Shown here piece by piece: positions 17,302 through 32,165 of a stretch of 33,583 nucleotides of DNA. How positions within the stretch are numbered: the stretch's first letter is position 1; the number at the start of each line of letters is the position of its first letter. Location of the stretch: positions 1 through 33,583 of IMG/VR virus record IMGVR_UViG_2684622669_000021; one strand, 5' to 3'. Position numbers and translations under genes: made by a program. The stretch comes from a virus (lineage: Duplodnaviria; Heunggongvirae; Uroviricota; Caudoviricetes). The notes beneath the pieces were generated by a model that ran no database searches, had not been told where the DNA came from, and worked only from the letters and a program-made list of their open reading frames with translations.

Positions 17302-17378
17302 GTGGCATTAGCTCAGTTGGACAGAGCAACCGCCTTCTAAGCGGTTGGTCGCAGGTTCGAATCCTGCATGCCGCGCCA
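17302..17378 (+). tRNA. tRNA-Arg, anticodon UCU (reads AGA), with encoded CCA
   Basis: Manual cloverleaf: acceptor GTGGCAT/ATGCCGC (one G-U pair); D-stem GCTC/GAGC; anticodon stem ACCGC/GCGGT with loop CTTCTAA (U33, anticodon TCT, A37); variable loop TGGTC; T-arm GCAGG-TTCGAAT-CCTGC; discriminator G; CCA. Related to but distinct from chromosomal argU. Confidence 0.9.
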
Positions 17379-17464: not shown

Positions 17465-17541
17465 CAGCAGGACGCCATTGCGATGACTTCATGCTGTAAA
17501 CCAGTACAGCCACGGAAGGCATAACTCATAGCTTCCAGTTC

Positions 17542-17566
17542 GCCCGGTTCGCCGGGCATTTTTTTA
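17542..17566 (+). terminator. Second intrinsic terminator
   Basis: Hairpin CCCGG-TTCG-CCGGG followed by CATTTTTTT. Confidence 0.7.
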
Positions 17567-17635: not shown

Positions 17636-17935
17636 ATGAATGGTTGGAATAGAAAAAAGACTCAATATTTAGCTGAGTGCATCCACGAACACGAAAAAGC
17701 CGACGGAGTAACCTACGATCCTAACGGTATGGTTAGCTACTGGAACACAAAATATAACCTCGTTCCTGCTGAACAGTTGCCAGCATTACAAAATCAGGTA
17801 TCTCTCGAATTAGAAGCTCTACGCGGTGCTGAGACTAACCATGTAACAATTAGCAACATTGGTGCCGCTAAGTTTGGATTCGACTCTGTAATAGGGAATC
17901 ATCTACCTAACTTCGATCCGGAGCCAGTTAAGTAA
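17636..17935 (+). CDS. Orphan moron protein (99 aa), unknown function, opposite strand to the late operon
   Basis: Strong RBS (AAGGAGTCAGCC-ATG). More AT-rich than the flanks. Ends 11 nt from the convergent terL stop. No family recognised from MNGWNRKKTQYLAECIHEHEKADGVTYDPNGMVSYWNTKYN... Confidence 0.6.
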   Translation: MNGWNRKKTQYLAECIHEHEKADGVTYDPNGMVSYWNTKYNLVPAEQLPALQNQVSLELEALRGAETNHVTISNIGAAKFGFDSVIGNHLPNFDPEPVK

Positions 17936-21857: not shown

Positions 21858-22628
21858 TCACTCTCCTTTGATGCGAATACCAGCAGCGCGCTCGGCTTCA
21901 CTTTGTTCCCAAAACCACTTGTGAAGCGCCATAAGCTTTTCGTCAATCGGTGCATATTTGCGATTAAAGTAGGCCTGAGCATCTTTCTCAGATTCGTCCG
22001 GTAATTCGCCAGGGCCAAACAGTGTGTTATAAATCCATGCTAGTCCGCTCTTAGCGTCGCCAGTTGCCTGCCATTCGATAATGGCAGCCTGCATGACCAG
22101 AATGTTTTTCCCGATTAATAGGTCCAGTTCTTTGTACCGGTTGCGGATGTATGCATTCTCGCTTTGTAATTTTGCGTTGCGCTTTTCTGAGGCTTCAAGT
22201 AACGCCTGCTTATCGCGTAGCGCTTCTTCCAGTTCAGCAACATGGCATTCACTATCAATAAGGTTGTTCTCTGCTGCTTCAAGCTCAACACGCAGCTTCC
22301 CAACCGTAAGCGCAATCTCCTCGTTCTCCTGATCGCGGCGTTTTATGTATTGCTGGTTTCTTTCCCGTTCATCCAGTAGTGCCAGCACGGTAGCCGGGTT
22401 AGCCTCTGCTATGAATTCAGCGTTTGCATAAGCCTGAGCATCTGTTTCAACCAGGCAGTTAACATGACATTCTGCAATCACGCCACCGGGTTCTCCTTTC
22501 CATTTTTGACAAACAAAAACTCCTGTTATATTCCCATGCTGATTGACCGATGTATGCCCTACGATGTAGCTCCCTTTCGTTGCCTTTTCTGCCGCTTCAC
22601 GCAGTGCCTGATAGTTAATTTTGCTCAC
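21858..22628 (-). CDS. ead/Ea22-like family protein, paralogue 1 (256 aa)
   Basis: GTG start after AAGGAGGCAACCA. N-terminus [18 protein letters not shown]...; central coiled coil. GTGA overlap with the upstream paralogue. Confidence 0.7.
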   Translation of the reverse strand: MSKINYQALREAAEKATKGSYIVGHTSVNQHGNITGVFVCQKWKGEPGGVIAECHVNCLVETDAQAYANAEFIAEANPATVLALLDERERNQQYIKRRDQENEEIALTVGKLRVELEAAENNLIDSECHVAELEEALRDKQALLEASEKRNAKLQSENAYIRNRYKELDLLIGKNILVMQAAIIEWQATGDAKSGLAWIYNTLFGPGELPDESEKDAQAYFNRKYAPIDEKLMALHKWFWEQSEAERAAGIRIKGE

Positions 22629-22653
22629 TGGTTGCCTCCTTTGCGAAGCTGTT
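22621..22653. repeat. Junction repeat (copy 1) shared by the Ea22-like paralogues: RBS + GTG start + stop of the upstream gene
   Basis: TTGCTCACTGGTTGCCTCCTTTGCGAAGCTGTT is identical at 22621-22653 and 23205-23237. Confidence 0.8.
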
Positions 22654-23212
22654 CAGCAATACTTACGCATATCTCTGCGCCTCTAATCAGCCCCGGAACG
22701 TTCTTGTTTGGCCCAACTTCACCATCAACAAAATCAATCATCGCGTTACGAGCCATATCCACCCCCTGCGCACGTACTTCAGCCAGGAGAGCGTCGGTAG
22801 CTGGGGTTTCCGTGAAGTTGTCCTCCCAACCGTAGTACTCCTGACGACAGAAGTTATTAAATTCCTTCTCCGACTGTTTAAGCGCCGCATTCTCCACTGC
22901 CAGCGCCGCGCACTTGGCCTCAAGAGCTGCAACCACTTCCTGATGGTCTTTGTACTTAACGTATGAGCCGGAGATGTCATCACCTTCGGTGTTTAGCCAT
23001 GCGTCATTGCAATTCACTGCGTAGGTTCTGATGCTGATGCTCTCCCGCCCCTGACAGACGCCAGGCCAGTCAATAAAGTATCCGCAATGCCTACCCTCAG
23101 ACGTGCGCGCAGGATAAATGCCGTTATGACCCGGCAAAATATATGCTACCCATTCATCTTGCGTTGCCTGTTCCGCCGCCTCGCGCAGTTCTTGATAGTC
23201 AATCTTGCTCAC
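22625..23212 (-). CDS. ead/Ea22-like family protein, paralogue 2 (195 aa)
   Basis: GTG start at 23210-23212 after AAGGAGG. N-terminus SKIDYQELREAAEQ...; C-terminus ...ETPATDALLAEVRAQ...AEQLRKGGNQ shared with paralogues 3 and 4. Confidence 0.7.
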   Translation of the reverse strand: MSKIDYQELREAAEQATQDEWVAYILPGHNGIYPARTSEGRHCGYFIDWPGVCQGRESISIRTYAVNCNDAWLNTEGDDISGSYVKYKDHQEVVAALEAKCAALAVENAALKQSEKEFNNFCRQEYYGWEDNFTETPATDALLAEVRAQGVDMARNAMIDFVDGEVGPNKNVPGLIRGAEICVSIAEQLRKGGNQ

Positions 23213-23237
23213 TGGTTGCCTCCTTTGCGAAGCTGTT
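23205..23237. repeat. Junction repeat (copy 2)
   Basis: Identical 33-mer to 22621-22653. Confidence 0.8.
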
Positions 23238-23892
23238 CCGCACAATGCAGCAGGGCGTCCGTCGCTTCTTTCACCGTAACGATGTCGCCATCGTCCAGCC
23301 CGACAACCGTCGCGTCCTTAACGAACACCGAGCAAAGGTCATTAAACGCCTGCGCCCGCACTTCAGCCAGGAAAGCGTCGGTGGCTGGCGTTTCCCGTGA
23401 ACGGTAAGACCAAACAATGTCGTCTGTTTCACTGGGTTCTTCATGAGAGCAATTTGGGCAGACAGCAGTACAACCAGCATGATCTTCTATGAGCATCTTC
23501 AGCCACGAGTTCTCCTCCGCCAGCGTCACGCGACTGGCCTCCAGTTCTGCTACGCGCTGTTTTGCAGCATCCAGTTCAATCGACAATTTTTCCAACTGCT
23601 CTTTATGCTTTTTATATTCCTGATATGCGTGCCAAGACTGACCTTTGCGCACACTATCAGTGATATCAGTAATCTGTTCTGGTGTTAGCGTGGTCAGTGG
23701 CTGTGATGGGAAAATAAGCACTTTCCCGGAATCCCAATCAAAACCAGCGTGAATTGACTGAACCTCAACTGAAGGTGTTGAACCAATGCTGCCAGGCGAA
23801 TGAACAACGATTGTTACATCCATATCGCGACGATGGCTGTGGTTGTTGGACAAAATACGATTCACCAACTCAGAAAATTTGGAAAATTTCAT
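23209..23892 (-). CDS. ead/Ea22-like C-terminal module fused to a distinct N-terminal domain (227 aa)
   Basis: ATG start. N-terminus MKFSKFSELVNRILSNNHSHRRDMDVTIVVHSPGSIG... is unrelated to the SKINYQ N-termini. C-terminus ...[15 protein letters not shown]...AEQLRKGGNQ is shared with the other paralogues. Confidence 0.65.
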   Translation of the reverse strand: MKFSKFSELVNRILSNNHSHRRDMDVTIVVHSPGSIGSTPSVEVQSIHAGFDWDSGKVLIFPSQPLTTLTPEQITDITDSVRKGQSWHAYQEYKKHKEQLEKLSIELDAAKQRVAELEASRVTLAEENSWLKMLIEDHAGCTAVCPNCSHEEPSETDDIVWSYRSRETPATDAFLAEVRAQAFNDLCSVFVKDATVVGLDDGDIVTVKEATDALLHCAEQLRKGGNQ

Positions 23893-24179
23893 GCTGATTC
23901 CCCTTTCTCTGCTCTCTCCTGTCGGAACATCACTATCATCAGGTCGCCTTTTGTCGCTATCCTCGCTGTTGTGCCTGGTTCAATGCTGCCAAGTTCAAAT
24001 GCGTCATAGAACGCTTCTAATGCCTTCTGGCGTAGTTCCTGTTTGCGCCGTTTTTTCCACTGTTTCAGGAAAATGGAACCCAGCCATCGCCATGTACGGG
24101 ACATGATGTAAAGCCAACCGAGAAGTGCCAGACCGGTATTTAGGGCCGTATCGAGCGTTATCGTGGTGTCGATATTCAC
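23889..24179 (-). CDS. Small predicted single-pass membrane protein (96 aa) inside the Ea22-like array
   Basis: GTG start after AAGGAAGCAGCCA, overlapping the upstream stop. Hydrophobic segment ALNTGLALLGWLYIMSRTWRWLGSIF followed by a basic stretch KQWKKRRKQELRQK. Confidence 0.55.
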   Translation of the reverse strand: MNIDTTITLDTALNTGLALLGWLYIMSRTWRWLGSIFLKQWKKRRKQELRQKALEAFYDAFELGSIEPGTTARIATKGDLMIVMFRQERAEKGESA

Positions 24180-24877
24180 TGGCTGCTTCCTTTGCGAATC
24201 TGTTCCGCCCATTCTTCAAGGGATTTCTCCGCATATTCACCAGACAGGCCATCAATCGGATGCGCTTCATTAGCCAACTCTTCTTTCGCTGACAAAATCA
24301 TGCGTGTAACGTCGAAAACTTCACGCAAAGACTTATTGATAAATCCGTGATTGAACGCAGCAGCAAGACGGCTGGCGGTATAGTTAATCCCCTCGTTGCG
24401 TGCTTCCGCACGAATTTCAGCCAGAAAAGCATCGGTAGCTGGAGTTTCGCTGTGGTGTAGGGCATCGTTGATAATCATTGCAGCAACACCAGCCTGCCCT
24501 GCATCCGTGACCGACACATGATCAAGAGTTACAGCCATTGCGTGTTTCAGCCCGGCGTTCTCTGCCACCAGAGCCGCGAGCTTAGTCTCAAGCGGTGCTA
24601 TTCGGCACATAGCATCAATATTTGTGTCCTCCAGGCGCTTAATTTCACCAAGTAGCTCCAGTGCAACCTTTGGGTTGAATGCGGCAATATAACGAGCGTT
24701 GTTCTCTGCGTTTTTCAGTCCATCAAAGCCGGTCCATTTGATAACATCTTCACATCGTTTATCACCGGGCGTATGCACAGCATACGTACCTGTACCCGTC
24801 GAAATAAACGCGACCCATTCGCCCTGTGTTGCCTGTTTTGCTATCTCACGTAGTGCCTGATAGTTAATTTTGCTCAC
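24176..24877 (-). CDS. ead/Ea22-like family protein, paralogue 4 (233 aa)
   Basis: GTG start at 24875-24877 after AGGAGGCAACCA. N-terminus [23 protein letters not shown]...; conserved ...[15 protein letters not shown]... segment. Confidence 0.7.
24177..24204. repeat. Junction repeat (copy 3, diverged)
   Basis: CACTGGCTGCTTCCTTTGCGAATCTGTT, a diverged copy of the same junction. Confidence 0.6.
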
Positions 24878-25616
24878 TGGTTGCCTCCTGGCAAAGCTGG
24901 GCGACAATATCGCGATATTTATTCAGCTCCCGCAGCGCGACACAGACTCGCTCCCATTTCCGGATATCACTTTTCGCCCGACGCAGTTCGCGGTTTGCCT
25001 GTCGCAGCGATGGCAGAACCAGATTATCCACTCGATTCTCAAGCGGCTGCACAATGTCTGCCACAGTTTCTGTTTTAATATCTTCCTGTGTTGCAGCTTC
25101 CTGTCCCGGTAACGCAACACCTGCTGGTTGAGGAAAGGCCTTACCATCACTTTCCGTTACCAGCGCGGCTTTCGGCTCTGCTGGTAAATTATCGCCCGGC
25201 ATGCAGTAACGAAATTTACCGTTCTGATTAACGCGTGCCAGCCGCCCCGTTGCGGTTACCACCGCCAGCGTGGAAGCAACCTTGCGAGTACTGACACCGA
25301 ACTTACCCGCCAGTTCCTCACACGTTTTAGCCCCATCCTGACCGATAAACTCAATCATCATGTCTGCGGTAACTTTTTGTTCGACCTCCCCGGTCAGCAT
25401 ATCCTGTGCTTCAGATTTTACTGGCCGCTCTTCGGTTACCCGGGATTCACCTTCGCCAGCCAGAGACCAGGTGTGACCAGTTTTATCAACAACGCCATTT
25501 CTTTTGAGTTCCCACAGCTCGTTGACAGCCTCTTCACGACTGATATCAAGTCGCGCAGCCAGTTCTACCGACGTGGCTTTTCCCATTGCTTTCAGTGCGT
25601 CAAATACAGTTTCCAT
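24864..25616 (-). CDS. Winged-helix DNA-binding protein (250 aa) with two HTH-like modules
   Basis: ATG at 25614-25616 after GGGAGGAAA. Two HTH-like segments: [28 protein letters not shown] and [31 protein letters not shown]. Recalled as a common prophage family of unknown function. Confidence 0.55.
24871..24900. repeat. Junction repeat (copy 4, diverged)
   Basis: TGCTCACTGGTTGCCTCCTGGCAAAGCTGG, a diverged copy of the same junction. Confidence 0.6.
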
Positions 25617-25638: not shown

Positions 25639-26385
25639 TCACTTCGCAATTCCTGGCTGGACGACATTCGGACGCCAGCTCTCCCAGTTAAAATTCACCC
25701 ATCGCCCGCCGTTCATGGTCATGCGATCCATAATCCGCTCGCCGAGCAATGTTTTCATGGCCTCATAGTTCAGGTTTGTCAGCATCCCCACGCTGCGCAT
25801 CGACGCTGTCCGGCGATCAACAATCTGGTGCAGCACCACCTGCTCGTTTTTTGTCTCGCGCTGAATGCCAATTTCATCAAGAACCAGCAGATCCACTTGG
25901 CACAGTTCCCGCAAAAATTTTTCGCCTGATTGCCCGTCGTCATAGCTGGCGTGTAGAGCACTCATGACATCAGCCACGGTAACCACAATCACTGTCTGGC
26001 CATCTTTCAGCAGGCGATTCCCGATAGCCGCCGCCAGATGGTTTTTTCCGGTACCAGGTTTTCCGCTGAACGCAAAATTTGTACACCCGGTCATCAGTTC
26101 ATCAGCGATAGATTTCGCCTGGTTCAACGCGTATCGCTGACCGTCGTTCTGCACCTGGTAATTCGCAAACGAGCATTTGCGGTGCAATGGCTGGATGCCA
26201 GAGCGATTCAGAATTTTTTCCACCCGCAACTGACGATTCTGACGGTTGATCTCCTCACAACGTTTCTGGCCTTCGGAAAGTTGCCACTCGCGCCACTCCG
26301 CTACCGTTTTGAATGGGGCGGTTACATGTGGCGGGGCCAGTCTGCGGATACGTTCAAGAATGCCTCCTGCCGCAATATTTTTCAT
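25639..26385 (-). CDS. DnaC-like replicative helicase loader (AAA+ ATPase), 248 aa
   Basis: Walker [16 protein letters not shown] and Walker [10 protein letters not shown]. Lies right after the replisome-organiser gene. Confidence 0.85.
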
Positions 26386-26391
26386 GGTCAG

Positions 26392-27357
26392 TTACCCCCT
26401 GAAGCCCGGCGGAATTTCGGTATCCGGTTCAGAAATGTGATTCACACAACGCTGTACAGGCGAACGCCCCAGACGAATAACCAGCTCATCCCATTTTTCG
26501 CGAAGCTTTGACGGGCTCATGACGTTTTTTACCCAGAAGGGATCCCGCTGCACCCGACCAAACATTTCGCAAATTTGTCTGTGAGTTCTGCCATCCAGCA
26601 TCCGCATTGTGCGCACATCATTGGCCCATGCAGCCCAGTTGGGTTCTTTCGGTCGCATGATTTCGCCATCATCGCTGGCAGCCTGCTCGTAAAGACTCAC
26701 GATTCGTCCCCAGATCCACTGCGCACACGCTAAATCTTCCTGGCTACCCCACTGGCGTTTTTTCGCACTGAACACAACCGCGTCAGGGTGTCGGGTTAAA
26801 AAATCCTGTTCAGCCGTCTGCATGTCCGGTTGCGAAGCTTCCGGACGAGAAGTGTTTTTATTCTCTGTAGTGATCTCTGTTGTATTCTCTGTAAGATCAT
26901 CAGGCCATTTTGACCCGATGACATTGTGTCGTTTTGAACCAATGGAGCGTGTCATTTTGGCCTCTTCCATCGTGTCATTTTGACCTGATGGAGCGGCGCA
27001 TTTTGACCTGATGGATTCGCTCACTTTGCCACCATCTAAAAGCTCGCTCTCGTAATTAATCGTGTAAAAATTAGTCATGTCACGCTTTGATTTGTTGAGC
27101 TTTTCGCAACGCAAAAGCCCCAGCGCTTTCAGACTTGCAAATGCGCGTTTTAACGTTGACTCTGACCAGAACGGGAACTGTTCCAGCCATTGTTCTGTTG
27201 TGTTATAAATCCAGCGAACACCATCACATTCCATGCCGGAACCGGTATCTCTCAACCAGTAATGCAGCTGCTGTAACACAATGGCTTCGTTCAGACCTAT
27301 TTTCATCGCCAGCTGAGTGTTAATAACCAGTGGGCGTTCAGCAAAAAGAAGACTCAT
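26392..27357 (-). CDS. Replication initiation/replisome organiser protein (O-like), about 321 aa
   Basis: Position upstream of the DnaC-like gene. N-terminal HTH-like region. Start uncertain: ATG at 27355-27357 or TTG at 27411. Confidence 0.6.
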   Translation of the reverse strand: MSLLFAERPLVINTQLAMKIGLNEAIVLQQLHYWLRDTGSGMECDGVRWIYNTTEQWLEQFPFWSESTLKRAFASLKALGLLRCEKLNKSKRDMTNFYTINYESELLDGGKVSESIRSKCAAPSGQNDTMEEAKMTRSIGSKRHNVIGSKWPDDLTENTTEITTENKNTSRPEASQPDMQTAEQDFLTRHPDAVVFSAKKRQWGSQEDLACAQWIWGRIVSLYEQAASDDGEIMRPKEPNWAAWANDVRTMRMLDGRTHRQICEMFGRVQRDPFWVKNVMSPSKLREKWDELVIRLGRSPVQRCVNHISEPDTEIPPGFRG

Positions 27358-27859
27358 AATTCCATCCGGCTTTTTGTTGATATTGCTGACGATACGCACG
27401 CTTGAAAGCAATGGCTTTTTCTATAAGCTCGTCAGTCTCACGTTCCACAACAGCTGGATCCGCAAAAAGCAGCCCGGACTCCACCACATCGCCATATTCT
27501 TTGTTTAACCCGGCGATCATGTACGTAATGCTTTTTCCGTCAGTAATTTCACAATACAACCTGAAATCGCTGATCCGGATAGCCTCCATAATTGCCGGAA
27601 TCAGCGCCGTGAATTTTTCACGCTTATCCCTGGTGTCGATAGCTTTCCAGCGTTCGAATATCTTCACCCTGTTAACGCCCAGCGCCCGTTGATCAACCGC
27701 GCCATCATCAAACGTGACGCGATGAACATCGATGTTCGGGCGTTCTTTCAGAGCCCAGAATGCTTCCGTGATTAATATCGTCGCCTGCTCCTGCGTCATT
27801 CCTGGTCGGCATACCCAGGCATCCAGAGCCTCGCGAGCCTGCTCAGGAGTGAATATCAT
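27338..27859 (-). CDS. Hypothetical early protein at the cII/YdaT position (173 aa)
   Basis: Lies between the Cro-like gene and the replication genes. Assignment is by position only. Confidence 0.45.
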   Translation of the reverse strand: MIFTPEQAREALDAWVCRPGMTQEQATILITEAFWALKERPNIDVHRVTFDDGAVDQRALGVNRVKIFERWKAIDTRDKREKFTALIPAIMEAIRISDFRLYCEITDGKSITYMIAGLNKEYGDVVESGLLFADPAVVERETDELIEKAIAFKRAYRQQYQQKAGWNYESSFC

Positions 27860-28118
27860 TGTTCACCGCCAGTGATTCATTCGACATACACTTATTTTCA
27901 CAAGGTAGTCCATCTGTTGGGTTGGGATAAATGTCAGGGCGAAGTTCGTGGGGAGTAATTTCCCAATTCAGTAATGCACAGAGTGACGACACGCGTTCAG
28001 CAGGAACCTTGCCTTTAATGAACCACTTGCCTACGGCCTGGGAGCTAATGCCAAAGTGTTTGCCAATGTCAGTTTTCGACATTTTTTTAGAGATCTTATC
28101 GTGAATTTGATTACTCAT
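27843..28118 (-). CDS. Cro/YdaS-like HTH transcriptional regulator (91 aa)
   Basis: HTH segment SKTDIGKHFGISSQAVGKWFIKGKVPAERV. Divergent from the repressor gene. Start at the ATG at 28116-28118 after GGTGGAAAG; the track ORF extends to a GTG at 28145. Confidence 0.6.
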   Translation of the reverse strand: MSNQIHDKISKKMSKTDIGKHFGISSQAVGKWFIKGKVPAERVSSLCALLNWEITPHELRPDIYPNPTDGLPCENKCMSNESLAVNNDIHS

Positions 28119-28157
28119 ACTTTCCACCAGTACTATTAATTTCACCTACGCTACCAT

Positions 28158-28195
28158 CAAAAACTATAAGTTTCAACACAAAACCTATAGTTTTG
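28158..28195. promoter_or_regulatory. Operator-like pair of near-palindromic 14-15-bp sites between the divergent repressor and Cro-like genes
   Basis: AAAACTATAAGTTT (28160-28173) and AAACCTATAGTTTT (28181-28194) are inverted copies of one motif with a CTATAG centre. Confidence 0.55.
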
Positions 28196-28224
28196 CTGAT
28201 TGGTGAAACCTTTGGTTGTATACT
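28194..28224 (+). promoter_or_regulatory. Candidate maintenance promoter for the repressor, likely giving a leaderless mRNA
   Basis: TATACT (28219-28224) lies 6 nt upstream of the repressor ATG at 28231 with no SD. Possible -35 TTGCTG at 28194-28199. Confidence 0.35.
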
Positions 28225-28230
28225 TAAAAA

Positions 28231-28641
28231 ATGAGTAAAATAAACCATCCAATATTTGCTGAGAGAGTTCGGCAAGCAATGAGCGAACATGGCTGGTCGT
28301 TAGCCGGTCTGGCTAAAAAGGTTATGCTGTCCCATACCGCTGTGCGTAAGTGGGCAACAGGAGAAACCATTGCCAGCGGAGAAAGATTAAAAAGACTTGC
28401 CGCGGTAACAGGAAAACCAGAACATTGGTTTTTTATGCCGCTAAATGAACATTCAAAGGAAGAAGATGCACCACCACTAATCCAGCTTGACGACAAAGAA
28501 AAGGCGCTATTGTCCCTTTTTAATCAGTTGCCAGAAACGGAAAAGCTGAGACTAATCATGCACACAAAAAGCATTCTTCATGAAATGGATCTTCTAAAAA
28601 ACGATGTATACGACATAATCAATGATATTCAAAAACAATAA
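28231..28641 (+). CDS. Prophage repressor, XRE-family HTH, RacR/CI-like (136 aa)
   Basis: N-terminal HTH FAERVRQAMSEHGWSLAGLAKKVMLSHTAVRKWATGETIASGERLKRLAAVTG. Divergent from the Cro-like gene and followed by its own terminator. Confidence 0.7.
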   Translation: MSKINHPIFAERVRQAMSEHGWSLAGLAKKVMLSHTAVRKWATGETIASGERLKRLAAVTGKPEHWFFMPLNEHSKEEDAPPLIQLDDKEKALLSLFNQLPETEKLRLIMHTKSILHEMDLLKNDVYDIINDIQKQ

Positions 28642-28653
28642 GTTACATGAAAA

Positions 28654-28678
28654 AAGCGCCTCCCTGGCGCTTTTTTTA
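28654..28678. terminator. Intrinsic terminator after the repressor gene, possibly bidirectional
   Basis: AAAAAAGCGCC-TCCCT-GGCGCTTTTTTT: 6-bp GC stem flanked by an A-run and a T-run. Confidence 0.7.
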
Positions 28679-28712
28679 TCCTCACAAATAAAACTTTATG
28701 TTCCATTGCCTA

Positions 28713-28741
28713 TTGACCAATAAAACCAATAGTTTTACCAT
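28713..28741 (+). promoter_or_regulatory. Candidate early-left promoter with an embedded operator copy
   Basis: TTGACC (28713-28718), a 17-nt spacer containing AAAACCAATAGTTTT (28722-28736), then TACCAT. The operator copy is one mismatch from the 28181-28194 site. Confidence 0.4.
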
Positions 28742-28819
28742 TCATTCCATCAACAACGAACCGCATCGTTGTCAGGCTAAAGTTCCGCTACCCCGGCGTT
28801 AAGGGGAAATGAGGTCAGC

Positions 28820-28975
28820 ATGGATACTATCGATCTTGGCAACAACGAATCTCTGGTGTACGGCGTGTTTCCAAACCAGGACGGCACCTTCACCGCAATG
28901 ACGTATACCAAAAGCAAAACGTTTAAAACCGAAAATGGTGCCCGTCGCTGGCTGGAAAGAAACTCAGGTGAGTGA
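28820..28975 (+). CDS. Small early protein (51 aa), YdaF-like
   Basis: ORF below the track cutoff, read directly: MDTIDLGNNESLVYGVFPNQDGTFTAMTYTKSKTFKTENGARRWLERNSGE, with a GAGG RBS. Family assignment is from memory. Confidence 0.5.
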   Translation: MDTIDLGNNESLVYGVFPNQDGTFTAMTYTKSKTFKTENGARRWLERNSGE

Positions 28976-28976
28976 T

Positions 28977-29105
28977 ATGGATTTTGACACAATCATGGAA
29001 AAGGCTTACGAAGAATACTTCGAAGGCCTTGCCGAAGGCGAAGAAGCTCACAGCTTCAACGAATTTAAACAGGCGCTTTCCAGTTCGGCAAAATCTAACG
29101 GCTGA
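28977..29105 (+). CDS. Small acidic early protein (42 aa), YdaG-like
   Basis: MDFDTIMEKAYEEYFEGLAEGEEAHSFNEFKQALSSSAKSNG. The ATG lies 1 nt after the upstream stop. Confidence 0.45.
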   Translation: MDFDTIMEKAYEEYFEGLAEGEEAHSFNEFKQALSSSAKSNG

Positions 29106-29134
29106 TAAGCGAAACAGCACCGCGAGGAATCAGT

Positions 29135-29353
29135 ATGCAGAAACGAGAACCCGTCATCATCGCGCCAGACTATACCGATGATGAACTTTATGAGTGGATG
29201 CGCCAGAAAATTAATGCAGCGCAGGATCTGAAATGGGCCAATGAAGCCAGGGCTAAGCAGGCTGAAAATCTGTCCGCTCTGGAGCAGGATATCACCAGGC
29301 TGGAAAAAGCAGCGGCATTAAGCATTGCCAGAATGATTACATACCCGCGTTAA
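29135..29353 (+). CDS. Small early protein (72 aa), unknown function
   Basis: GAGGA RBS. Helical charged protein MQKREPVIIAPDYTDDELYEWMRQKINAAQDLKWANEARAKQ... Confidence 0.5.
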   Translation: MQKREPVIIAPDYTDDELYEWMRQKINAAQDLKWANEARAKQAENLSALEQDITRLEKAAALSIARMITYPR

Positions 29354-29375
29354 TAGCTAACCAACGAGGCTAATA

Positions 29376-29705
29376 ATGGAATTTAAAGATTTACCAATGC
29401 AATTCCAGGAAATGGCAGCGAATATAGTTCGTTCCCAACTGGCGACTCTTGACCTGAGTACCGTAGAAAAAGAAACCATCGATACTATATCCGGTAACGT
29501 GCGTCGTGCCTTTATCGGTCTGTACGAAGAGAAGCAGCTCTCTGATAACCAGGATTTACATGAAAAATACTTCCTGGATCTAATGGACATCATTAATAAG
29601 GGGTTTGGCTTGTTAATGGAAAAGAAAGGGATTCGGATAGAACCCCTTGAAAATTGCTTCGTAACAAGAAGCATCAATTCTTTTGATTCAAAACAAGAGA
29701 ATTAA
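29376..29705 (+). CDS. Hypothetical protein (109 aa), AT-rich gene
   Basis: GAGG RBS 6 nt before the ATG. Its 3' end overlaps the 3' end of the convergent minus-strand gene by about 32 nt. Confidence 0.55.
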   Translation: MEFKDLPMQFQEMAANIVRSQLATLDLSTVEKETIDTISGNVRRAFIGLYEEKQLSDNQDLHEKYFLDLMDIINKGFGLLMEKKGIRIEPLENCFVTRSINSFDSKQEN

Positions 29706-29949
29706 TTACAGATTTAACATGCTCTTTCTCATGATTGAAGCTCTCAGGGTTGAAAGTGCCCGGCTGAAGCGAGTCGATATAATCAACGAGATTCTTTCGT
29801 ACCGTTTCATCTTTATTCATGGCAGATGCAAGGTATGAAATTGCTAACAATGTTATATCACTACGCGCCGCAGCATGCTGTAGTGTTTTATCAAAATCAT
29901 TAATTTTCCGTATAAGAGAGTTAAGAGTTTCATTGACATCAAACCCCAT
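29674..29949 (-). CDS. Hypothetical protein (91 aa) on the opposite strand within the early-left operon
   Basis: Start at the ATG at 29947-29949 (MGFDVNETLNSLIRKINDFDK...) after a strong AGGAGG-ATGAA RBS. AT-rich. The track ORF 29674..30027 carries a 26-aa extension. Confidence 0.55.
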   Translation of the reverse strand: MGFDVNETLNSLIRKINDFDKTLQHAAARSDITLLAISYLASAMNKDETVRKNLVDYIDSLQPGTFNPESFNHEKEHVKSVINSLVLNQKN

Positions 29950-30062
29950 TTCATCCTCCTGAGGGTTAGTAATTAAGGAGTTCTCCACGGGTGAGGTGGA
30001 GTGCGTGCGCCGGACACGGGTGAGCATCCGGCACTGACAATACCAACGTCAACGGCGAAGAC

Positions 30063-32165
30063 ATGACTGAGATTGAGGAGAATATGCTCCTGCCGGTTTC
30101 AGGTCAGATTCTGCCTGTTCGATGGCTGGCACAGCACGGCAGCGAAAAACCGATCACACACGTTTCGCGGGGCGAACTACGCGCATTACATAACGCACAG
30201 GATGAAAAACTTCCCGCCGTTACCGCGCTGGCCATCTCAAATAAAGCAGCGCAACTCGAACCGCTGGAAATTCGCGATCTCCACAAACTGGTTCGTGACA
30301 CTGACAAAGTTTTCCCTAATCCTGGTAATTCAGACCTGGGACTGATGACTGCTTTTTTCGAAGCCTACCTGGGCGCTGACTACACCGATCGCGGTCTGCT
30401 GACAAAAGAGTGGATGAAAGGAAATCGTGTTTCACGCATCACCCGCACGGCTTCCGGTGCTAATGCCGGTGGAGGGAACAAAACCGATCGCAATCCGAAT
30501 TTAGTACACACCTTCGATACGCTGGATGTGGAGATTGCAGCGGCCACACTTCCGATGGATTTTAATATTTATGAAATTCCGGGCAGCGTTTATCGTCGCG
30601 CAAAAGAAGTCGTCCGGAAGAAAGAAAGTCCGTTCAAAGAATGGTCCGCGGCACTTCGCGCAATCCCGGGTATCCTGGATTATTCCCGCGCCGCTATTTT
30701 TGCACTTATCCGGAGCGCACACCCTGAGTTTTATCATTACCCGGGACGTCTTCAGGGGTATATCAACGCCTATTTAACAGAGACTGATCACGAGAACCCT
30801 TCCGAGGAAACTCTCGCTGCTGCACGACATACACCGGAAAAAGATATCCTGGAAGAAGTTAACCGCGAACTGGCTGCTGAACGCGAAACAGAAGAAGAAA
30901 AAAATAATGAGGAAAAATCACAACCGTCTGACGCAATGGCAGATGAACAGGCAACGGCTGAAACAATGGAACCGGATACAACTGAACATCGCCAGGACAC
31001 GCAATCGCTGGATGCTCAGGCACAGATAGATCCAGTTAATCAGGTAAAAGTTACCGCTGACGAAGTAAACAAAATTATGCAAGCAGCCAATATCAGCCAG
31101 CCTGACGCCGATAAGTTGCTTGCGGCCTCTCGCGGTGAATTTGTTGCAGGGATTAGCGACCCGAATGATCCGAAATGGGTGAAGGGGATTGAAACCCGCG
31201 ATTCTGTGAACCAGAACCAACAAGAATCGGAACAGAACGACCAGAAAGCGGAACAAAACAGCCCAAATGCGTTACAAAACGAGCCAGAAACGAAACAGCC
31301 TGAACCAGTGGCGCAACAGGAAGTGGAAAAAGTTTGCAATGCCTGCGGTCAGTCTGGCGGGGATAACTGCCCTGACTGTGGTGCGGTGATGGGCAACGCA
31401 ACATACCAGGAAACATTCGATGACGAGAATCAGGTTGAAGTTCAGGAAAATGATCCGGAGGAAATGGAAGGCGCTGAACATCCACAAAAGGAGAATGCTG
31501 GCAGCGCTCAGGACCACGCCAGCGATAATGAAACTGGCGAGACGGCAGATCCCTTAATTGCAGTGAACGGTCATCACATTATCACATCCACCAGCAGAGT
31601 GTGGTACCACCTGATGATCGACCTTGAAACAATGGGAACCAACACCAATGCGCCCATCGTGGTTATTGGTGCGGTTTTCTTCGACCCACAAACAGGGGAA
31701 ATCGGGCCAGTATTTTATATCGTTATCAGTCTGACTGACGCAATGAATACAGGGGCTGTTCCTGACGGTGGAACCATCGAATGGTGGCTGAAGCAGTCCA
31801 GTGAAGCCAGAGCTGCCATTTTAACAGACCAGGTAAAACTGAAGGATGCCCTTTCGCGGTTTCGGGAGTTCATCAACGAATACTCAGATGAAAAATTAGT
31901 TCAGGTATGGGGTAATGGTGCAACTTTCGATAACGCAATTTTGCGCACCTCATACGAACACCTGGACATCCCCTGCCCGTGGCGCTACTACAACGATCGC
32001 GATGTACGCACAATCGTTGAGCTGGGGAAAGCCATAGACTTCGATGCCAGAACGGCTATTCCATTCGAAGGTGAGCGCCATAATGCACTTGATGACGCCC
32101 GTTACCAGGCAAAATACGTTTCAGCTATCTGGCAAAAACTGATCCCGAGTCAGGCTGATTCTTAA
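30063..32165 (+). CDS. RecE-like protein: RecE N-terminal/linker region fused to a C-terminal DEDDh 3'-5' exonuclease domain (700 aa)
   Basis: N-terminus [36 protein letters not shown]..., the acidic Gln/Glu-rich linker and the Zn-ribbon [20 protein letters not shown] are recognised from RecE (exodeoxyribonuclease VIII). The C-terminal 200 aa carry DnaQ-like motifs: Exo I MIDLET, Exo [14 protein letters not shown], Exo [16 protein letters not shown]. Confidence 0.7.

Follow-up and report, generated by a model that had tools for sequence, protein, structure and literature searches.

The immunity region of a lambdoid Escherichia coli prophage lies in the window, by which we mean the whole 33,583-nucleotide stretch analysed here (positions 1 to 33,583 of IMG/VR virus record IMGVR_UViG_2684622669_000021). 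At its centre is a short gene coding for a helix-turn-helix (HTH) repressor, which is divergent from cro-like, cII-like and replication genes and lies upstream of a recombination operon, the position of a lambdoid immunity module as judged from open reading frames (ORFs), domains and the RefSeq annotation of the identical locus. The leftward promoter PR is predicted for the cro-like and cII-like genes, PRM for the repressor gene and PL for the early-left operon. The non-coding DNA on the two sides of the repressor gene contains five copies of a 15-bp dyad, three on the right-operator (OR) side and two on the left-operator (OL) side, and these very probably serve as repressor operators at PR, PRM and PL in an immunity switch of the Gifsy/Qin/Rac type. 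The features are collected in Table 1.

Table 1. Genes, predicted promoters, candidate operators and leader elements of the immunity region. Operator centres are given from the repressor ATG (OR) or after its stop codon (OL), for the window and for the closely related loci L012/L013; aa, amino acids.
Feature	Coordinates	Strand	Centre (window; L012/L013)	Description
DnaC-like gene	25639-26385	-		ORF and domain scan
O-like replication initiator gene	26392-27411	-		ORF and domain scan
CII-like gene, YdaT family	27338-27859	-		173 aa; Pfam YdaT_toxin; phrog_163 (CII-like activator), E=4.6e-40
Cro-like gene, YdaS family	27843-28118	-		91 aa; Pfam YdaS_toxin, E=5.6e-10; phrog_35 (transcriptional repressor), E=2e-21; RefSeq annotation
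Predicted PR	28148-28176	-		-35 TTGAAA (28176-28171), 17-nt spacer, -10 TAGCGT (28153-28148); for the cro-like and cII-like genes
Candidate operator OR1	28160-28174		-64; -66	Dyad AAAACTATAAGTTTC, read as GAAACTTATAGTTTT on the minus strand; overlaps leftward PR at its -35 and spacer
Candidate operator OR2	28180-28194		-44; -43	Dyad AAAACCTATAGTTTT; best palindrome; abuts the weak PRM -35 region
Candidate operator OR3	28205-28219		-19; -18	Dyad GAAACCTTTGGTTGT; fills the PRM spacer; last base is the first base of the TATACT -10
Predicted PRM -10	28219-28224	+		TATACT; 6 nt, then ATG at 28231
Repressor gene	28231-28641	+		136 aa; Pfam HTH_3; N-terminal XRE-type HTH; Gifsy/DicA type
Intrinsic-terminator-like hairpin and T-run	28647-28679	+		Inverted repeat AAAAAAGCGCC-TCCCT-GGCGCTTTTTTT; predicted end of the repressor transcript
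Candidate operator OL2	28690-28704		+56; +63/64	Dyad AAAACTTTATGTTCC; 5' of the PL -35; 32 bp from OL1
Predicted PL	28713-28741	+		-35 TTGACC, 17-nt spacer, -10 TACCAT; for the ydfA-ydfB-ydfC-like/exonuclease operon
Candidate operator OL1	28722-28736		+88; +94/95	Dyad AAAACCAATAGTTTT; within the PL spacer; last base shared with the -10
Leader hairpin 1	28753-59 with 28766-72	+		ACAACGA/TCGTTGT
Leader invariant motif	28783-89	+		GTTCCGC
Leader hairpin 2	28791-94 with 28803-06	+		CCCC/GGGG; just 5' of the ydfA Shine-Dalgarno sequence
Early-left genes	3' of 28641	+		ydfA (DUF1391), ydfB, ydfC-like, small genes, 700-aa RecE-fragment/Rv2179c-type exonuclease, excisionase, integrase

Candidate operators and promoters flanking the repressor gene

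An earlier note on this DNA had reported three copies of a near-palindrome, AAAACTATAAGTTT at 28160-28173, AAACCTATAGTTTT at 28181-28194 and AAAACCAATAGTTTT at 28722-28736, and all three are real and lie exactly there. Its placing of two of them in the divergent intergenic DNA between the repressor and cro-like genes, and of the third in the PL spacer, is borne out by the sequence and by comparison with relatives. Two copies had been overlooked, GAAACCTTTGGTTGT at 28205-28219 and AAAACTTTATGTTCC at 28690-28704, which brings the total to five, and the CTATAG centre by which the motif was then described is present in one copy only. In the closest relatives (loci L012 and L013/14, with repressors 76-80% identical) the centre is variable and the outer AAC and GTT are constant, so CTATAG is incidental. 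Positions 7-9 of the dyad are A or T only, and the centres include TATAA, CTATA, TATTA, TTATA, TAATA and TTTTT among others; AAC (positions 3-5) and GTT (positions 11-13) are invariant in 15 of 15 sites of the closest relatives, a count that is partly circular in that the search required AAC/GTT with at most one mismatch. The consensus of the predicted operators is a 15-bp dyad, RAAAC-YWWWR-GTTTY, with a conserved AAC-N5-GTT core.

The dyads are concentrated around the repressor gene. A 15-mer search of the 33.6 kb allowing up to three mismatches finds only the three places noted earlier, with five strand-hits against 0.64 expected, a number reached by none of 100 shuffles. The pattern RAAAC-N5-GTTKY (5+5+5) gives eight strand-hits where 0.75 are expected, seven of them in the immunity region at four distinct sites, and all three exact copies in the window of the 13-bp core AAAC-N5-GTTT are in that region. 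When one mismatch in this core is allowed, 5 of the 20 matches in the window fall in the non-coding DNA, 290 bp in all, on either side of the repressor gene (binomial P ~7e-7, for a pattern chosen post hoc). A sixth copy, AAAACAATAAGTTAC, spans the repressor stop codon (28632-28646); it is absent from that position in L012 and L013 and was treated as chance.

The arrangement corresponds to that of lambdoid operators. Three dyads lie between the divergent promoters and overlap the -35 and spacer of the predicted PR and the spacer and -10 of PRM, and the two further copies are at the early-left promoter. PL is the only promoter-like match of a consensus scan of 27800-29000; it is conserved in relatives and is equivalent to dicBp of the Qin prophage. 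PRM has a weak -35 (CTGATT), and PR is placed by positional homology with the TTGAAA-17-TATGCT and TTGGAA-17-TAATCT promoters of related loci. A hairpin with a T-run is found at the terminator position behind the repressor gene in nearly all relatives. We note that the OR3/PRM segment (28197-28221) and the OL1/PL segment (28720-28744) share a 25-nt inverted similarity, 80% complementary, which reaches past the 15-bp dyads and may stem either from a longer recognition sequence or from a shared ancestry of these promoter-operator units.

The repressor start codon at 28231, the first of its ORF, follows the TATACT element by 6 nt without a Shine-Dalgarno sequence, which is read directly from the DNA as the earlier note had it, and the leaderless mRNA that it proposed is supported by the geometry of the whole family. 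Each of the 38 distinct 60-nt sequences upstream of the ATG in relatives has a TAnnnT element whose end is 5-7 nt from the start codon and lacks a Shine-Dalgarno core (GGAG, GAGG, AGGA or AAGG) 4-18 nt upstream, and the N-termini of the related repressors are conserved from the same first ATG. The cro-like gene, unlike the repressor gene, has a Shine-Dalgarno sequence (GGTGGA). Among mapped relatives, leaderless transcripts have been described for dicA and racR by differential RNA sequencing (PMC4681348), for racR from PracR3 by means of primer extension (PMC9638921), and for paaR2 with 5' RACE (rapid amplification of cDNA ends) plus sequencing of the N-terminus (PMC8630535). The prediction of a leaderless start at 28231 is thus well supported, and the trait is already known for this repressor family; the PRM transcript would begin at or beside the A of the ATG.

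Related immunity loci and known switches

Five loci from a scan of genome contigs and 80 from a scan of viral contigs were compared with the window, together with Gifsy-1 and K-12 Qin, after alignment on the repressor ATG and on its stop codon. About 85 related loci, Gifsy-1 and Qin included, have one scaffold in common. Its left part consists of the start of the cro-like gene, the PR -10, a dyad that lies in the PR spacer and reaches over a TTGAAA-type -35, a second dyad, and a third dyad abutting a TAAAAT-type -10 that is followed after 5-7 nt by the ATG; its right part consists of the repressor gene, the terminator hairpin, a distal dyad, the PL -35, a dyad in the 17-nt spacer, the PL -10 and a conserved leader. 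A site at the OR1 position (-64 to -69) is also present in L012, L013, Gifsy-1, L003 and L007, and sites at the OR2 position (-43/-44) in L012, L013 and L003; the OR3 position (-18 to -20) and the PL spacer are occupied in every specificity group. The distal OL site is 31-33 bp from the proximal one in L012, L013, Gifsy-1, L003 and L005. When dyad symmetry is averaged over 47 unique upstream sequences anchored on the ATG, only -20/-19 stands out as a clear peak; those of OR1 and OR2 are smeared, since the positions of these sites shift by a few bp between groups, and the site tables of the individual groups were relied on instead.

The half-sites themselves differ between groups together with the recognition helix of the repressor. 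The helix SHTAVRKW of the window, L012 and L013 is paired with AAAC/GTTT, SHTSVRKW of Gifsy-1 with AAC/GTT, SHTAVQNW of the L003 group with GAAAG/CTTTC-like half-sites, SPQAVQQW of the L005 group with ACAAG/CTTGT, and TPQAVQKW of the L007 group with GAAAC/GTTTC. Fixed positions combined with half-sites that track the recognition helix are what is expected of heteroimmune operators, and they provide the best single argument for taking the dyads as repressor sites. The ACAAG-N5-CTTGT sites of the group formed by L005 and L034-L065 (IMG/VR) resemble the half-sites of phage 434 (ACAA...TTGT) with one additional spacer base, and the SPQAVQQW helix contains glutamines, like the 434 helix. The OR/OL-type layout suggested in the earlier note, with operators on both sides of the repressor gene, is therefore supported, as positions relative to the ATG, promoters and stop codon are kept in the ~85 loci. 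By sequence comparison, the Gifsy/Qin-like repressor family as a whole has a single promoter and operator scaffold, common to at least five specificity groups, with half-sites swapped onto it.

The nearest well-studied counterparts are Gifsy-1 and Gifsy-2, with repressors GfoR and GtgR and antirepressors GfoA and GftA (PMC3121763). The Gifsy-1 repressor is also 136 amino acids long, with a nearly identical recognition helix (LSHTAVRKWATG versus LSHTSVRKWASG), and the module has its genes in an identical order: DnaC-like, O-like, cII-like and cro-like genes divergent from the repressor gene, then the terminator, PL and the exonuclease operon. Dyads of the form AAC-N5-GTT are centred at -68 and -19 from its ATG and at +69 and +102 after its stop codon, and the PL leader is the same as in the window. 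The DNA matches the window at only ~66% identity and along part of the region only, the window has cro and cII genes of the YdaS/YdaT type, and no dinI-antirepressor module was found in the window. The outer half-site bases also differ (AAAAC/GTTTT in the window, RRAAC/GTTYY in Gifsy-1), so the immunity specificity may differ as well.

The dicA-dicC-dicBp region of Qin likewise has a short repressor gene divergent from a cro analogue (PMC3441716, PMC10448788), three sequence-defined operators (Oc, Om and Oa), and a dicBp promoter composed of a distal operator, a TTGACC -35, an operator in the spacer and a -10, followed by the leader and ydfA-ydfB-ydfC; the dicA mRNA is leaderless (PMC4681348), and Rem is a known antirepressor. 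DicA shares just 30% identity with the window repressor, its operator is a 20-bp repeat, TTGTTAGTCATAACTAACAA, with other half-sites and spacing, and DicC is not of the YdaS family. The dicF and dicB genes were not found in the window, either in an Rfam search for the DicF small RNA at the gathering threshold or among the ORFs of 28820-30063, none of which was identified as dicB. The racR-ydaS-ydaT and paaR2-ydaS-ydaT regions of Rac and CP-933P share with the window a YdaS-type Cro and a YdaT-type CII (PMC9638921, PMC11879457, PMC8630535), multiple inverted repeats over divergent promoters and repressor transcripts that are leaderless by primer extension or 5' RACE, and CP-933P has an additional PL with operators. 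Their operators are different, with a TAGGC-N3-GCCTA motif in Rac and 18-bp repeats of the GTTTAGTAA type in CP-933P; they also differ in how many sites there are and in how the C-terminus of the repressor is built.

Phage lambda has the same tripartite OR between divergent PR and PRM promoters, a weak PRM -35 and operators at PL. The centres of its OR3, OR2 and OR1 lie near -19, -42 and -66 relative to the PRM start, where the window has -19, -44 and -64, and 6 nt separate the -10 from the leaderless ATG in both. The dyads are 17 bp long in lambda and 15 bp in the window, and lambda has three OL sites rather than two. Unlike in lambda, OL is only ~0.5 kb from OR, 3' of the repressor gene and on the same strand, there is no N gene after PL, and the repressor lacks the cleavable C-terminal domain of cI.

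The proposed switch, its alternatives and induction

A dimer of the 136-residue repressor most likely binds the 15-bp dyads, and the YdaS-type Cro probably binds the same sites. The half-site centres are ~10 bp apart, which would place the repressor contacts on one face of the DNA helix, the geometry known for the HTH dimers of 434- and P22-type repressors. Occupancy of OR1 would block PR and switch off the cro/cII/replication operon; OR2 would probably assist OR1 and may activate PRM with its weak -35, as lambda cI activates PRM from an OR2 at about -42; OR3 would shut off repressor synthesis at high levels of repressor or Cro; and OL1 and OL2 together would block the early-left operon. By analogy, activation of PRM from OR2 and autorepression from OR3 are plausible. 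DicA at Oc activates dicA and represses dicC and dicBp (PMC3441716, PMC10448788), PaaR2 at low levels activates PRM933P, and its footprints overlap those of YdaS on the intergenic repeats and on a PL (PMC8630535); GtgR shifts a fragment of the Gifsy-2 OR, from which its antirepressor displaces it (PMC3121763). The sites, their enrichment and conserved positions, their covariation with the recognition helix, the promoter geometry and the homology to GfoR are shown by the sequences; the assignment of proteins to sites, the order in which these are filled, the activation of PRM, any looping between OR and OL and the antirepressor route are all points that we infer.

Several observations weigh against this proposal. 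The PR -10 (TAGCGT) is poor and PR falls below the threshold of the consensus scan; OR3 and OL2 each carry one degenerate half-site (GTTGT and GTTCC); and the OR1-OR2 spacing is 20 bp in the window and 23 bp in the closest relatives, so that cooperativity cannot be assumed. In an unbiased test of any 4-mer dyad at any spacing in both intergenic stretches, AAAC-N5-GTTT ranks first with p of only ~0.03, a consequence of the AT-rich background DNA. With respect to induction, no homologue of GfoA, Gifsy-1 DinI, an IrsA-like protein or K-12 Rem was found in the window by tblastn, no antirepressor was recognised among the 20 window ORFs scanned against PHROGs (mostly of the immunity, early-left and post-replication regions), and a pattern search of the window gave no convincing LexA-controlled gene, the sole plausible LexA-like box (17494-17509) preceding a terminator.

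An alternative is that the dyads serve only the Cro-like (YdaS) or CII-like (YdaT) protein and that the repressor reads some other sequence in these regions. Genes of both types are present in the window, Rac YdaT binds the racR-ydaS intergenic region (PMC11879457), and in CP-933P the region protected by the repressor is protected by YdaS too (PMC8630535). This is nevertheless unlikely, as the half-site follows the recognition helix of the repressor across groups, dyads occupy the PR and PL spacers that a lysogenic repressor must silence, and the two regions contain no second repeated dyad; moreover, repressor and Cro share operators in lambda and CP-933P, so binding by YdaS complements repressor binding more than it rivals it. 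The intergenic DNA is 57-68% A+T, and this composition, with the modest outcome of the unbiased test, could suggest that the repeats are chance or compositional features of promoter DNA (A/T tracts resembling upstream promoter (UP) elements, or bent DNA) with no specific protein. We regard this as very improbable given that all three exact AAAC-N5-GTTT copies of the 33.6 kb are here, that relatives keep the positions to 1-4 bp although the sequence around them has diverged, and that other immunity groups have, at these positions, a half-site which is not an A/T tract (ACAAG/CTTGT). The interpretation of the A/T tracts as integration host factor (IHF) sites or UP elements was dropped for the last of these reasons.

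The operator reading does not extend to induction as in lambda. The only domain of the repressor is HTH_3/HTH_31 of Pfam (residues 9-67), with no S24 peptidase, and the protein matches Gifsy-1 GfoR with 63% identity over 136 amino acids (E=5e-67) and DicA with 30% identity over 100 (E=2e-11). By sequence it is a short non-cleavable protein of the Gifsy/DicA/RacR type, and the analogy to lambda therefore holds for the operator and promoter wiring and not for induction. A strict cI-type switch, with a repressor inactivated by RecA-stimulated self-cleavage, would fit the OR/OL wiring and the leaderless PRM but is scarcely credible for a 136-residue protein without a peptidase domain whose close relative GfoR is uncleaved and is inactivated by antirepressor binding (PMC3121763).

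Induction would instead proceed through a small antirepressor acting in trans, a route that, with no candidate found in the window, we infer from family membership only. GfoR and GtgR are uncleaved dimers stripped from DNA by small LexA-controlled antirepressors (PMC3121763), and Rem relieves repression by DicA (PMC10448788). The gene for such an antirepressor may be located beyond the window or in a different prophage. There is precedent for the latter in FsoA, an antirepressor from another prophage that acts on Gifsy-2.

The early-left leader and the prophage setting

The most interesting by-product of the analysis is a leader of ~70 nt (28748-28815, rightwards) directly after PL, which is conserved in nearly all related loci regardless of immunity type or first gene. 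It is also present at 2942-3010 in L002, at 6438-6505 in L089 and in most of L003-L086, and is kept in prophages of the Gifsy, Qin and Enterobacter/Klebsiella types. Hairpin 1 appears as GACAAC/GTTGTC in most loci, GACAGC/GCTGTC in L021 and ACACCG/CGGTGT in K-12 Qin, and hairpin 2 elsewhere as GCCC/GGGC, GCCT/GGGC, GGCCA/TGGCT or CCGG/CCGG, changes that are apparently compensatory. Both hairpins are in the minimum-free-energy fold, and pair counting gives modest support to the two-hairpin model (78% of cells paired, against 26-50% with slid pairing). RNAalifold recovered only a 4-bp helix from the leader and not the two-hairpin model, no Rfam family matched it at the gathering threshold or at E<=5 (the region has only sub-threshold terminator look-alikes), a second copy that might be the analogue of nutR or putR was not found in the window, and neither a literature search nor papers on this repressor family brought up a mention of it. 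We tentatively raise the possibility, which we hold to be doubtful, that the leader is an undescribed cis-acting RNA element of the early-left transcript, such as a nut- or put-like antitermination site or a processing or translation control site; if so, the five-operator switch would control entry into that element.

The immunity block (27800-28900) is 100% identical to the chromosome of E. coli strain SLK172. Among 5,426 complete genomes its central segment turns up in only 5, and no phage isolate carries it, while the flanking ydaT and ydfA DNA is found in thousands of E. coli genomes; a rare centre with common flanks is the usual mosaic pattern of immunity regions. The PL operon opens with ydfA, ydfB and a ydfC-like gene, as in Qin, and the stretch 28820-30063 also contains a 109-amino acid phrog_6937 gene and, on the opposite strand, a 117-amino acid ORF (29674-30027) without family; SLK172, with which the immunity segment is shared, has dicB downstream. 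The 700-amino acid ORF that follows (30063-32165, rightwards) combines a short N-terminal piece of RecE (Exonuc_VIII), a long linker that is acidic and of low complexity, and an Rv2179c-like 3'-5' exonuclease domain at the C-terminus, and the corresponding region of SLK172, next to an identical immunity segment, is annotated with a RecE pseudogene and a separate exonuclease gene.

Elsewhere in the prophage, a tRNA-Arg(TCT) gene (17302-17378) is followed by the LexA-box-like sequence CTGTAAACCAGTACAG (17494-17509), a terminator-like hairpin with a T-run (~17540-17566) and an orphan rightwards ORF of 99 amino acids (17636-17935) without a PHROG match. Four tandem ead/Ea22-like paralogues of 256, 206, 227 and 243 amino acids occupy 21858-24907 on the leftwards strand; three share an N-terminal motif, three share a C-terminal ETPATDA.LAE...QLRKGGNQ module, and they match phrog_368, phrog_250, phrog_492 and phrog_614, none of which has a known function.

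Qin, Rac, CP-933P and the Gifsy phages have already provided descriptions of the layout, the leaderless PRM, YdaS/YdaT partners and operators at PL. What is specific to the window is the operator sequence RAAAC-YWWWR-GTTTY, the explicit map of five predicted sites and the scaffold common to the specificity groups, and the switch represents a new immunity specificity within a well-known kind of switch, the general understanding of which is unchanged. The precise five-site map and consensus for a rare E. coli immunity type would aid in predicting superinfection immunity and the cross-talk of co-resident prophages, for example with repressors of the Gifsy-1 type, whose recognition helix is almost the same.

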